Below, piece by piece: positions 31,871 to 34,036 of a stretch of DNA of 64,000 bases; the stretch's first letter is position 1; every line of letters begins with the position of its first letter. The stretch is from the NCBI RefSeq assembly GCF_041248615.1, contig NZ_CP158426.1; one strand, written 5' to 3'. Under the pieces are notes generated by a model, which made no database searches, was not told the DNA's origin, and saw only the letters and a list, made by a program, of their open reading frames with translations. Source of the DNA: Escherichia coli. Its GTDB lineage: Bacteria; Pseudomonadota; Gammaproteobacteria; Enterobacterales; Enterobacteriaceae. Made by a program: the position numbers and the translations under genes.

Positions 31871-32014
31871 ATGCGGCAATTCATAATCTCTGAAAATACC
31901 ATGCAAAAAACTTCTTTTAGACCAAAGACAGTATTTTTCAGACCTTCAAATAAGGCATTAAATATCAATAAGTTACACCAGTTTTTAAGCAATAAAAAAA
32001 ACCACCAGAGATAA
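31871..32014 (+). pseudogene. displaced 5' fragment of rluE (first ~17 codons, then unrelated sequence)
   Basis: ATGCGGCAATTCATAATCTCTGAAAATACCATGCAAAAAACTTCTTTTAG encodes [16 protein letters not shown], which matches the E. coli K-12 RluE N-terminus as I recall it; the reading frame then diverges. Confidence 0.5.
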
Positions 32015-32160
32015 CTAACAGGATGCTATTTGGTCAAAATTTGACATTACTCGACTCAGCGACTATCTCACTTTGAGCACTATTGGGAAAATTATCAAAA
32101 GTCATGGTTGAAGCGACAAGCAACGAGTAAATTATGGCATCCCCCCTTTTTGAGGTTCAC

Positions 32161-32247
32161 ATGAAACGCTTTGCACTGATAGCTGTGAAACTCGTTGCCT
32201 TTACTGGTTCTGCATCTGCTGCAACCGAAGAAATCAACTTCAAGTAA
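32161..32247 (+). CDS. 28-aa mini-ORF resembling an isolated signal peptide
   Basis: MKRFALIAVKLVAFTGSASAATEEINFK with GAGG 5 nt upstream; same reading frame as the downstream 149-aa ORF, separated by two stop codons. Confidence 0.3.
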   Translation: MKRFALIAVKLVAFTGSASAATEEINFK

Positions 32248-32280
32248 CAGAAACACTATATAACAATGGAGTGTTGACAA

Positions 32281-32730
32281 ATGGATACTACCGAAGAACG
32301 CAATGGAACATATTTCTACAGAGGACACCCGAACCTGTCCAAAATAGAACTACTCAACGTCATATTCCTTGAAGAATTCTGTAAGGAATTGGGGATTGAT
32401 TCGGTATCAGGTGCAGCAATCTTATCTGGTCAACCGTGGCTGGGTACAAGAGCGAAGCCGCAAGGGGCAACCCTGGGAACAAGTGTTGTCTCAAAGTATG
32501 CGCGTATACTGATGAGAGATGCACGCATGCCTTTTGGTATTTCTGTTCATACACCAGTGGGTGTAAGGATGCAGAAATCTAATAAGCTTGCTGCAATTAT
32601 CGCTCGTTGGGTCCCGTGGATTGGTTGGGCTTCACTGTCGATGAGTCTTTACAGGGTTTCGACTCGTACCCAGGAAAAATACAATCTGATTGCCAAACCT
32701 CAAGACCGTATTAAGTGGACTTCCTTCTAA
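32281..32730 (+). CDS. hypothetical protein (149 aa), first gene of an overlapping pair
   Basis: ORF-track entry; no family assigned. Confidence 0.55.
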   Translation: MDTTEERNGTYFYRGHPNLSKIELLNVIFLEEFCKELGIDSVSGAAILSGQPWLGTRAKPQGATLGTSVVSKYARILMRDARMPFGISVHTPVGVRMQKSNKLAAIIARWVPWIGWASLSMSLYRVSTRTQEKYNLIAKPQDRIKWTSF

Positions 32731-33065
32731 TGGCGACAACAATCACAGACGAAGTTTTAGCACTGTTCCGTGATGAGATTCCAGGTTATCAGGATGACCA
32801 CGGGAAGGAAATTCCGTTAGAACTGGACTCTGATTTGTTCGACTATCCACGAGATGATTTAGAGGACGCTATACGGAAATACAAAGAGAGGTTTGGGATT
32901 AACCTGGATAATCTGGACTGGTCTTTGTACCTTCCATGGGAGTCTGCACCATTGCTTCAACGATGGTTCAAGCTCAAGCGGGAAGAGGTAGAAACAACAC
33001 GTTTACCGTTAACTGTACGGATGTTTGCAGAATCAGCAGAAGCGGGAAAATGGCTGTATCAGTAG
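32715..33065 (+). CDS. hypothetical small acidic protein (116 aa), overlapping the upstream ORF by 16 nt
   Basis: ORF-track entry; acidic composition; no family assigned with confidence. Confidence 0.55.
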   Translation: MDFLLMATTITDEVLALFRDEIPGYQDDHGKEIPLELDSDLFDYPRDDLEDAIRKYKERFGINLDNLDWSLYLPWESAPLLQRWFKLKREEVETTRLPLTVRMFAESAEAGKWLYQ

Positions 33066-33397
33066 AATAAAAAAGAAGGCTGCGATGCCCCTCTTATTAC
33101 TGCTGTTGATGGTAGTGGTAAAGCATCATCCTGAACTTGAACAGTGAAGTGCTGTCACCCATCAGTAATACAGAAACACTATTTTTCATACCAGTATTTA
33201 TTCAATTCATCAATGTAAAATGTGTTCATTGGGCCATATTTATCACCATGCAGCCACACAACCGCTGCTCACTAACCCAGGTATTGATGAAACCGCGCTG
33301 AAGAGCCTGAACCCTGAACCTCTAACGAGTACCTTAAAAGTCCAATGCAATCCGACACTGTGCTACCCTCTGCGTATAGCTCTATTTGGAATTTACC

Positions 33398-34036
33398 ATG
33401 AAATACTTTAGCGATTCTAAATCTTCTTTTAGAAAAAAACAGGTTAGTCGACTAAACTCGCAACACTCCACTAAGCGTAAACCTGAAAACCAGCCCACGC
33501 GCGTGATCCTGTTCAATAAACCCTACGATGTTCTTCCGCAGTTCACCGATGAAGCCGGACGCAAAACATTAAAAGAATTCATCCCGGTTCAGGGCGTTTA
33601 TGCAGCAGGTCGTCTTGACCGCGATAGCGAAGGGTTACTGGTGCTGACCAATAACGGCGCGTTGCAGGCGCGTTTAACCCAGCCGGGTAAACGCACCGGA
33701 AAAATCTATTATGTGCAGGTGGAAGGTATTCCCACACAAGACGCACTTGAAGCCTTGCGCAATGGCGTAACCTTAAATGATGGCTCTACCCTGCCCGCAG
33801 GCGTAGAGCTGGTTGACGAACCCGCGTGGTTATGGCCGCGGAATCCACCAATTCGTGAACGCAAAAGTATTCCCACCAGCTGGCTGAAGATCACCTTATA
33901 TGAAGGACGTAATCGCCAGGTGCGCCGCATGACCGCCCATGTTGGTTTCCCCACGCTGCGACTGATTCGCTATGCGATGGGTGATTACTCTTTGGATAAT
34001 CTTGCCAATGGCGAATGGCGAGAAGCGACAGATTAA
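33398..34036 (+). CDS. rluE: 23S rRNA pseudouridine(2457) synthase
   Basis: ORF 33386-34036; ATG at 33398 ([15 protein letters not shown]...); from residue ~20 onward matches K-12 RluE as I recall it. Confidence 0.85.

Follow-up and report, generated by a model that had tools for sequence, protein, structure and literature searches.

Several described systems bear comparison with an insertion of about 1.5 kb at the 5′ end of rluE in Escherichia coli. The insertion lies in a 64,000-nucleotide stretch of contig NZ_CP158426.1 (assembly GCF_041248615.1; the whole stretch is "the window" below) and carries two small overlapping open reading frames (ORFs), ORF1 and ORF2. Among these systems are the hcp islands, or orphan hcp operons, of type VI secretion systems (T6SS), to which the Hcp-dependent small effectors of Pseudomonas aeruginosa are comparable; the cargo of the Hcp ring is limited to about 20 kDa or less. 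In such islands, exemplified by Pse1/Psi1 of Pantoea, a small effector gene stands right after hcp and is followed by an immunity gene (PMC9796082). The genes directly downstream of hcp are effector-immunity pairs, and orphan immunity genes often come after them (PMC9796082; PMC3942780). The Rhs/YD-repeat polymorphic toxins form a second point of comparison. Their C-terminal tips generally act in the cytoplasm. With respect to the mode of insertion, the nearest parallels are the SXT/R391 elements, which integrate at the 5′ end of prfC and give that gene a new 5′ end and promoter, and the e14-type phages, which replace the 3′ end of icd. Type II toxin-antitoxin (TA) systems, in which a toxin-first gene order is atypical, resemble the pair in having two small overlapping genes, a basic and an acidic protein, and plasmid copies.

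Set beside these systems, the insert is probably an old, non-autonomous islet carrying an orphan polymorphic toxin-immunity cassette of the DUF8209 and DUF1493 families that has no hcp gene. In this reading, ORF1 would be a small basic toxin and ORF2 an acidic cytoplasmic immunity protein that would neutralise ORF1 by direct binding. Elsewhere in Enterobacterales the cassette has the layout of an Hcp-carried T6SS effector, behind a stand-alone hcp, and elsewhere in bacteria the ORF1 domain forms the C-terminal tip of Rhs-type proteins. The insert is a presence/absence polymorphism: 374 of 5,426 complete E. coli genomes (6.9%) carry it, at a single site throughout, and the remainder (about 5,050) have an empty site. 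Escherichia sp. E1V33 (locus L003) also carries it.

The ORF1-ORF2 pair and its relatives

Gene annotation follows the RefSeq calls of the Prokaryotic Genome Annotation Pipeline (PGAP) in a genome identical to the window over 31700-33600 (Table 1). ORF1 encodes a basic protein of 16.8 kDa with an isoelectric point (pI) of 10.0, which belongs to the STM2901 family of NCBIfam (NF045926; 156 bits, cutoff 110) and also to the Pfam family DUF8209 (PF26636). The ORF2 product is acidic (pI 4.5) and belongs to DUF1493 (PF07377; E = 1.3e-29). RefSeq and an N-terminal alignment of 43 homologues agree on the ATG at 32730 as the start of ORF2, where the sequence TAATG gives a 1-nt overlap with the ORF1 stop. 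An earlier, sequence-only reading of the window had recognised a 149-residue ORF, which is ORF1 (32281-32730), and had been unable to assign either protein to a family; both now have one, STM2901/DUF8209 and DUF1493, each lacking a described function. It had also given the second ORF 116 residues, a GTG start at 32715 and a 16-nt overlap, in place of the 111 residues and 1-nt overlap found here. In the searchable literature, STM2901 and STM2902 appear solely as variable "putative cytoplasmic proteins" beside SPI-1, a pathogenicity island of Salmonella.

Neither protein has a hydrophobic segment of membrane-span length, the peak 19-residue hydropathy being 1.24, and on inspection neither N-terminus looks like a signal peptide. 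The idea of a membrane-acting toxin was dropped: the peak value is below the usual transmembrane threshold, and the helix consensus is polar in the Rhs-fused proteins described below. A cytoplasmic target may be guessed, given that the putative immunity protein is soluble and without a signal peptide and that the cytoplasm is the usual site of action of Rhs tips. Sequence searches of the PDB with the ORF1 profile and with ORF2 returned nothing significant. AlphaFold2 models reached a mean confidence (pLDDT) of 60 for ORF1 alone and 65 for a Gly-Ser-linked ORF1-ORF2 construct with a paired alignment, values too weak for fold assignment.

Relatives of the pair were examined by scanning one genome per species, which gave 51 loci in Enterobacter, Citrobacter, Klebsiella, Raoultella, Erwinia, Pantoea, Hafnia, Rouxiella, Mangrovibacter and other genera. 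A DUF1493 gene directly follows the ORF1 homologue in 46 of them, usually with a 1-nt overlap with the stop. Only in Escherichia does the pair lie at icd/rluE; in the other genera it occupies many unrelated sites, and several genomes have three modules each. The similarity of the two partners co-varies, as seen from the bit scores of ORF1 and ORF2 homologues (Pearson 0.92, Spearman 0.76, n = 43 pairs). Moreover, ORF1 is under purifying selection, with dN/dS values of 0.046 and 0.10 against two genera. Close relatives of ORF1, 65-88% identical at the amino acid level, are found in co-habiting enteric genera.

When the ORFs in the flanks were clustered, one more recurrent gene emerged, some 500 bp upstream and on the same strand, which encodes TssD/Hcp (TIGR03344, 140 bits). 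A full-length hcp lies directly upstream of the pair, on the same strand and with a gap of at most 60 nt, in 26 of the 51 loci. In 6 loci a full hcp is found elsewhere in the flank, in 5 there are fragments only, and 14 have no hcp match (two of these with a flank too short to judge). No other T6SS gene recurs in the flanks of the 51 loci, so these are orphan hcp islets. Unpaired extra copies of DUF1493 are present in Mangrovibacter arrays.

The ORF1 domain also has a second context. A profile search of 1.8 billion proteins gave 373 relatives, and among the 150 matches listed at least 13 carry the domain at the extreme C-terminus of a protein of 220-612 residues. The Rhs-associated core TIGR03696 was detected in six of ten fusion proteins tested, in five above the cutoff; P0091, P0127, P0179 and P0185 combine TIGR03696 with NF045926, and P0114 shows a weaker match. 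On four of five fusion-protein contigs (L055, L062, L063 and L064) the next gene is DUF1493, twice as a tandem pair, and two of these four contigs carry the same protein, P0113. On the fifth contig (L056) a 131-residue ORF without family match occupies the DUF1493 position. The neighbouring genes suggest that these metagenome and draft-genome contigs come from non-enterobacterial hosts. No PAAR, Hcp or VgrG domain was found by Pfam in 30 fusion proteins. Hence, one putative toxin domain stands behind two delivery devices and is almost always followed by DUF1493, an arrangement characteristic of polymorphic toxins and their immunity proteins.

How close is the E. coli copy to the two delivered forms? 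As in the hcp islands, a small putative effector gene right after hcp is followed by a putative immunity gene, and the DUF8209/DUF1493 modules lie scattered in multiple copies, accompanied by surplus orphan immunity genes and by hcp fragments in decay; the size of ORF1 is within the range of Hcp-lumen cargo. In contrast to the families of the described islands, neither DUF8209 nor DUF1493 is presented as a T6SS component anywhere in the searchable literature. The window copy also differs in its setting, as it has no hcp (lost, or never present), whereas 26 of the 51 family loci have hcp adjacent and 11 more have it nearby or in fragments, and it sits in a housekeeping operon rather than a T6SS island. 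The likeness to the Rhs/YD-repeat toxins consists of DUF8209 at the extreme C-terminus after a TIGR03696 core, followed by one or two DUF1493 genes. Unlike these, E. coli ORF1 is a free-standing protein of 149 residues with its own conserved N-terminus (MDTTEE(x)NGTYFY) and without an Rhs, PAAR or VgrG part.

If the pair is a toxin and its immunity protein, DUF8209 and DUF1493, which are widespread in Enterobacterales and on plasmids, gain a testable function as a toxin-immunity family, either Hcp-delivered or present as an Rhs tip. The same reading would account for the unannotated variable genes STM2901 and STM2902 beside SPI-1 in Salmonella. At the level of the families, this functional proposal appears to be unpublished in the searchable literature.

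Two side observations concern the modules themselves. Their ends are far more conserved than their interiors: the N-terminus of the putative toxin, MDTTEE(L)NGTYFY, and the C-terminus of the putative immunity protein, PLTV(R)MFAESAKAGKWLYD, hardly vary even where two pairs share only 35-45% identity overall (loci L003-L053). These ends may be recombination handles for cassette swapping or Hcp contact sites. In addition, a degenerate fusion that joins an N-terminal fragment of Hcp to a C-terminal fragment of DUF1493 is present in 42 other E. coli genomes. In the one context inspected, that of E. coli E16 (NZ_CP119726; L057, 5789-6111), it lies in an integrative element next to an hxsABCD radical-SAM system and a relaxase. 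The fusion resembles a scar left behind when an hcp-toxin-immunity module was deleted.

Readings of the E. coli copy

Several observations weigh against regarding the insert as a polymorphic toxin-immunity cassette. At the window locus there is neither an hcp gene nor a remnant of one, and the similarity of the DNA to all other loci spans the ORF1 ATG (32280/32281) to the ORF2 stop. No T6SS genes are present in the 64-kb window. A close homologue (>80% nucleotide identity) of the module-linked hcp is found in none of the 5,426 E. coli genomes; 1,356 of them have a distantly related hcp, with 70-73% DNA identity over part of the gene. As hcp is also missing in 14 of the 51 loci and from many of the plasmid copies discussed below, the pair can persist without linked secretion machinery. 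PADLOC, which covers known anti-phage defence systems, returned nothing at E ≤ 1 for ORF1, ORF2 or a mini-ORF upstream of them. In direct Pfam searches, ORF1 gave a spurious KELAA match and nothing significant, and ORF2 gave DUF1493 alone. Finally, the searchable literature holds no functional study of DUF1493/PF07377 or of STM2901/DUF8209/PF26636.

The pair is present on 153 plasmids, most of which come from Serratia or Pantoea; the number typed as conjugative is 54. Examples without hcp are the IncFII plasmid pSMC2 of Serratia, where the pair lies near ParA and a tyrosine recombinase, and an IncFII/conjugative plasmid of Pantoea, which has the pair alone. On pSMC2 of Serratia marcescens (L058, 4340-5788) a DUF2913 gene occupies the hcp position, directly upstream of the STM2901-DUF1493 pair. 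DUF2913 might be an alternative adaptor or carrier.

Pure decay of the E. coli copy is disfavoured by its conservation. The ORF1-ORF2 region keeps at least 99% identity in 373 of the 374 carriers, against values as low as 93% for the left flank, and in one E. coli allele ORF1 is nucleotide-identical although the non-coding DNA next to it differs by 7%. The cassette could still be actively delivered by a T6SS using another Hcp, a possibility against which we lean slightly. Either way, the roughly 7% of E. coli with an hcp-less copy in the rluE-nudJ operon offer a natural system for the persistence of orphan effector-immunity pairs.

A sub-case of the toxin-immunity explanation, and compatible with it, is a "vaccination" islet, in which ORF2 would protect against Enterobacter, Citrobacter and Klebsiella firing hcp-linked DUF8209 toxins and ORF1 would be a non-exported passenger. 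Targets of such protection are at hand in the 65-88% identical toxin relatives of co-habiting enteric genera, and the locus has no hcp. In the CP088590 carrier, moreover, ORF1 is truncated by an IS3-family insertion sequence (IS) and ORF2 is intact. There are documented cases of hcp islands retaining orphan immunity genes (PMC9796082). If ORF1 were purely a passenger, however, more frequent decay would be expected, whereas the gene is whole and has at least 99% identity in about 371 of the 374 carriers and is under purifying selection across genera. This sub-case is thus somewhat unlikely.

A combined reading goes further. DUF8209 would be a toxin whose fold and cellular target have no parallel among characterised effectors, the immunity protein would be acyl-carrier-protein-like, the hcp-less copies, both in the rluE operon and on IncFII and conjugative plasmids, would now act as secretion-independent addiction or vaccination modules, and the installation in rluE, with its rebuilt 5′ end, would have been integrase-free. 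We regard this combination as doubtful; if true, a polymorphic-toxin cassette would have been caught changing from weapon to selfish stabiliser.

That the pair is an autonomous, secretion-independent addiction module with a stable toxin and a labile acidic antidote, stabilising whichever replicon or region contains it, its hcp and Rhs contexts being secondary, is improbable: the 153 plasmids (54 conjugative), the two hcp-less plasmid examples, the absence of hcp from the E. coli copy and the TA-like overlap of genes for a basic and an acidic protein would suit it, but fusion to the Rhs core and, in half of the loci, a place directly after hcp are typical of exported polymorphic toxins and not of TA toxins, the toxin-first order is atypical, tandem and orphan DUF1493 copies fit immunity arrays, and ORF2 has neither an NCBIfam or PADLOC match to a TA family nor a helix-turn-helix, ribbon-helix-helix or AbrB domain. 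The sequence-only reading had offered toxin-immunity and toxin-antitoxin side by side; the first is favoured by the 46/51 pairing, the co-variation, the hcp linkage and the Rhs fusions, and classical TA is the less likely of the two.

The insertion in rluE and its origin

In K-12 (strain BW2952) rluE comes directly after icd. From the icd start to 31921 the K-12 sequence and the window agree base by base with one mismatch in 222 nt, and from 31922 they diverge completely. Relative to K-12 the insert measures 1512 bp (31922-33433, counted with one repeat copy), and it begins directly 3′ of codon 17 of annotated rluE. The window ORF that starts at 31871 shares exactly codons 1-17 with K-12 rluE and then reads insert DNA until a stop at 32014. 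The exact 11-mer CTTCTTTTAGA is found at both junctions with a spacing of 1512 nt, and in the rluE frame the last base of either copy is the third position of an AGA (Arg) codon. The chance expectation for an 11-mer repeat anywhere in 1.75 kb is about 0.4; that it falls exactly on the two junctions of a presence/absence polymorphism is no matter of chance. The GC content of the insert is 42.3%, against 49.2% for the window. Window positions 31700-33600 are 100% identical to E. coli isolate NRZ14408 (NZ_LT599825).

At its right end the insert supplies a substitute 5′ end for rluE. The ribosome-binding site (RBS) and ATG region resembles the native one (GAATTTACCATGAAA against native GAAAATACCATGCAA) and is followed by 15 extra nt, the 11-mer and a patch that we call B′, which has 13 substitutions relative to K-12 within 39 nt (33436-33474) and no indels. 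A 27-nt identical block and near-identity come next. The 11-mer is thus an island of identity inside a substitute 5′ end of about 90 nt. The resulting 212-residue RluE scores 466 bits on the RluE equivalog model over residues 8-212, and the rebuilt end is a clean example of a housekeeping gene surviving an insertion into its start.

Much of this had been anticipated by the sequence-only reading: an insert of about 1.5 kb that splits the 5′ end of rluE, which the K-12 alignment bears out; departure from the RluE N-terminus after about codon 17; and a replacement start brought in by the insert, with which the RefSeq start at 33398 and the RBS/ATG mimic agree. The survey concurs, as most E. coli, K-12 included, lack the insert. 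A direct repeat had been placed at both junctions, at about 31907-31920 and 33419-33432; the repeat stands, with its exact extent corrected to 11 bp at 31911-31921 and 33423-33433. The right boundary has to be revised, however: intact rluE had been read as resuming 1.5 kb later with a different N-terminus, and the sequence to the right of the second repeat, B′ with its 13 insert-linked substitutions, is not native either.

B′ and the insert occur together in 374 of the 376 genomes with B′ and in 10 of 10 metagenome contigs. An empty site with B′ is known from two of the 5,426 genomes only, E. coli HS-02 (NZ_CP172818; L054, 1690-1800) and the O157:H7 strain TR01 (NZ_CP033605; L077, 1601-1711), both of which have all 13 B′ substitutions and the carriers' single-nucleotide polymorphisms (SNPs) deeper in rluE. 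Judging from these sequences, the two empty sites are probably secondary losses by deletion between the 11-bp copies, or the result of recombination with a carrier haplotype. A metagenome scan for the empty site followed by B′ gave no match, against the 10 insert-bearing contigs. TR01 is the sole O157:H7-labelled record in the high-identity B′ class.

All outgroup RluE N-termini inspected, Salmonella included, have the contiguous MRQLI...RFSS form, and therefore the K-12 arrangement is ancestral. A search for another genus with the MKYFSDSK/B′ N-terminus found none among the inspected matches, which were mostly fragments. Escherichia-specific RluE residues missing from other genera are kept in B′, so it looks like a diverged Escherichia-type copy and not the allele of another genus.

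As to the insert itself, it contains no integrase or transposase, ORF1 and ORF2 being the only plausible genes, and no terminal inverted repeats between its ends. Its non-coding flanks (31922-32280 and 33066-33422) are found in the same 374 genomes only, at one site each, with no other source among the plasmids and phages searched: the two matching records, CP088590.1 and the prophage record ON470584.1, are both really E. coli chromosome. The features of an integrative island are present in part, namely the 11-bp flanking repeats and the occupied and empty sites; a recombinase of its own is absent. The two empty sites that retain B′ are compatible with loss of the element, and a second insertion site was not found. 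The insert is roughly as far from its E1V33 copy as the flanking core genes are from theirs, which implies that it is old. Perfect 13-nt and imperfect 22-nt repeats are nested within it (Table 1), the chance expectation for the former being an estimated 0.02-0.1 per 1.75 kb. The nesting is a hint that the cassette itself was inserted into an older "outer" sequence.

Two explanations of how this arrangement arose merit discussion, the first ranking above the second, with the remaining probability going to neither. We tentatively prefer an import in which a diverged Escherichia-like lineage donated the whole segment between 31922 and about 33474 (cassette, upstream region and diverged rluE 5′ end), with a homologous right end in rluE and an illegitimate left joint at or next to the conserved 11-bp block, as in homology-facilitated illegitimate recombination. 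As a corollary, the two empty B′ genomes would be later deletions between the repeat copies. This explanation is consistent with the linkage of B′ to the insert in 374 of 376 genomes and all 10 metagenome contigs, with the Escherichia-specific residues in B′, with the low GC content of 42%, and with the carriers' SNPs that extend further into rluE in HS-02 and TR01. It also fits a diverged copy of about 90 nt (33385-33474) that stops exactly where the 27-nt identical block starts. However, the donor lineage was not found and the flanks have no match outside the carriers. A left joint exactly at the end of the longest conserved block would be partly coincidence, and the nested 13-nt and 22-nt repeats are left unexplained. 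The rebuilt rluE start with its linked B′ patch may point to a recombination route that has received too little attention.

Alternatively, a recombinase acting in trans could have inserted the element at the 11-bp core, with an attachment site that mimicked the rluE start and with B′ as the native allele of the recipient lineage. The exact repeat at both junctions and the mimicry of the native RBS and ATG by the right end of the insert argue for it, as do the clean empty sites with B′ in HS-02 and TR01, which would be expected of a pre-insertion or excised state. Such empty sites amount to 2 of 5,426 genomes and no metagenome contig, however, against 10 insert-bearing contigs; the insert has no integrase, its flanks are found at a single site only, and B′ is unlike the RluE N-termini of other genera among the inspected matches. 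Moreover, B′ differs from the K-12 sequence at 13 of 39 nt and the next approximately 100 nt are almost identical, a pattern implausible in an ordinary native allele. From a simple crossover at the 11-mer one would predict native sequence on the right; B′ is there instead, and hence such a crossover does not explain it. We consider this route unlikely.

The parallel with the SXT/R391 and e14-type elements is limited in the same way. They share with the rluE insert the direct repeats at the junctions, the displaced native gene end and a diverged in-frame replacement end. In contrast to them, the rluE insert has no integrase or excisionase, measures only 1.5 kb and is found at a single site, and the replaced rluE segment passes beyond the repeat, which a crossover at the repeat does not predict. 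The sequence-only reading had proposed an islet that targets the 5′ end of a housekeeping gene; the insertion and its substitute 5′ end agree with this proposal, while the lack of an integrase, of terminal inverted repeats and of a second site does not. An IS, a miniature inverted-repeat transposable element or another transposon is disfavoured by the lack of inverted repeats and of a transposase and by the one copy per genome at one site.

Expression, feature coordinates and surrounding sequences

A single promoter-like site on the plus strand was found in 31650-33500. It is the native rluE site (Table 1), which lies upstream of the insert, points into it and is identical to that of K-12. No terminator-like site was found on the plus strand of the insert. 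Because the cassette has the same orientation as rluE, the native promoter lies upstream and no plus-strand terminator-like site intervenes, one transcript probably runs from P_rluE through the 47-residue remnant, ORF1, ORF2 and rluE-nudJ. Translation of RluE would then restart at the insert-supplied ATG at 33398.

Table 1. Coordinates of features at the rluE locus of the window, with the basis of each assignment or a remark.
Feature	Position	Strand	Basis or remark
Native rluE promoter-like site	31844..31872	+	-35 ATGAAA, 17-nt spacer, -10 TATAAT (31867-31872); 10/12 consensus
Displaced rluE 5′ remnant, 47-aa ORF	31871..32014	+	17 native codons, the rest insert-derived; K-12-identical to 31921
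Left 11-bp repeat copy, CTTCTTTTAGA	31911..31921		Native rluE codons 14-17
Insert	31922..33433	+	K-12 comparison, genome survey, composition
22-nt motif at extreme left end of insert	31923..31944		18/22 match to 33171-33192
Mini-ORF MASPLFEVHMKRFALIAVKLVAFTGSASAATEEINFK, signal-peptide-like, doubtful gene	32134..32247	+	ORF list only; no PGAP call
Left copy of perfect 13-nt direct repeat, ACAGAAACACTAT	32247..32259		22 nt upstream of ORF1 ATG
ORF1, STM2901 family/DUF8209 (PF26636), 149 aa, putative toxin (effector)	32281..32730	+	Family models, composition, locus context
ORF2, DUF1493 (PF07377), 111 aa, putative cognate immunity protein	32730..33065	+	Pfam, RefSeq coordinates, adjacency to ORF1 homologues
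Right 13-nt repeat copy (33170-33182) overlapping 22-nt motif (33171-33192)	33170..33192		About 105 nt past ORF2 stop
Substitute rluE 5′ end	33385..33474	+	RBS/ATG mimic, 15 extra nt, 11-bp repeat, B′
rluE as now expressed, 212 aa	33398..34036	+	RefSeq WP_000873388.1; N-terminus MKYFSDSK
Right 11-bp repeat copy, CTTCTTTTAGA	33423..33433		K-12 comparison and repeat search

The position of the native rluE start deserves comment. In the annotated K-12-type gene, the ATG at 31871 overlaps the -10 TATAAT (window region 31867-31903), and the NCBIfam RluE model begins near the second ATG, at 31901 (MQKTSF). The true native start is probably at 31901, which would place the insertion after codon 7 and not codon 17.

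The mini-ORF, which the sequence-only reading had listed as part of the insert, exists as an ORF; PGAP does not annotate it, and it is frameshifted in E1V33. It is in frame in E. coli AST85 (L061) despite a 6-nt deletion, and has no NCBIfam or PADLOC match. An Rfam search of the insert gave no match. A 10-nt perfect complement between the ORF1 RBS region (32267-32276, TGGAGTGTTG) and B′ (33461-33470, CAACACTCCA) was also noted; it was rejected as meaningful, since the chance expectation is about 1.5 per 1.75 kb.

The right flank is split in about 10 of the 374 carriers. In AST85 (L061, 3122 onward) an IS3-family insertion lies between ORF2 and rluE. Another, in CP088590 (L060, 6469-7682), lies between ORF1 and ORF2, truncating ORF1 at residue 142 and leaving ORF2 intact. 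This record, CP088590.1 (pD17EC0246-6), is a 175-kb "plasmid" with the chromosomal genes bluF, icd, rluE and purB, and probably represents either a misassembly or a piece of excised chromosome.

On the other side of icd (30449-31699, minus strand), a lambdoid prophage occupies window positions 1-30335, at the icd 3′ end. It has an excisionase and an integrase (28967-30335), head genes, a lysis cassette, iss and an ompC-like porin. The integrase at 29193-30335 belongs to this prophage, which is separated from the islet by icd and has no relation to the insertion in rluE. The islet is 1.5 kb from this prophage attachment hot spot, a possible transduction route. Record ON470584.1 (L078; Escherichia phage vB_EcoM-689R6, partial genome) extends at 18528-24423 past an e14-like integrase into icd, the islet and rluE-hflD, and is most likely an over-extended prophage call.

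The RefSeq gene order on the plus strand is STM2901 family protein, DUF1493 family protein, rluE, nudJ, mnmA, hflD and purB. Compared with E1V33, the body of rluE (33400-34200) differs by 7-11% per 200 nt, which is 2-4 times the difference seen in icd, the insert and mnmA. The strain names of the carriers suggest clinically important lineages, e.g., ST648 and ST405.

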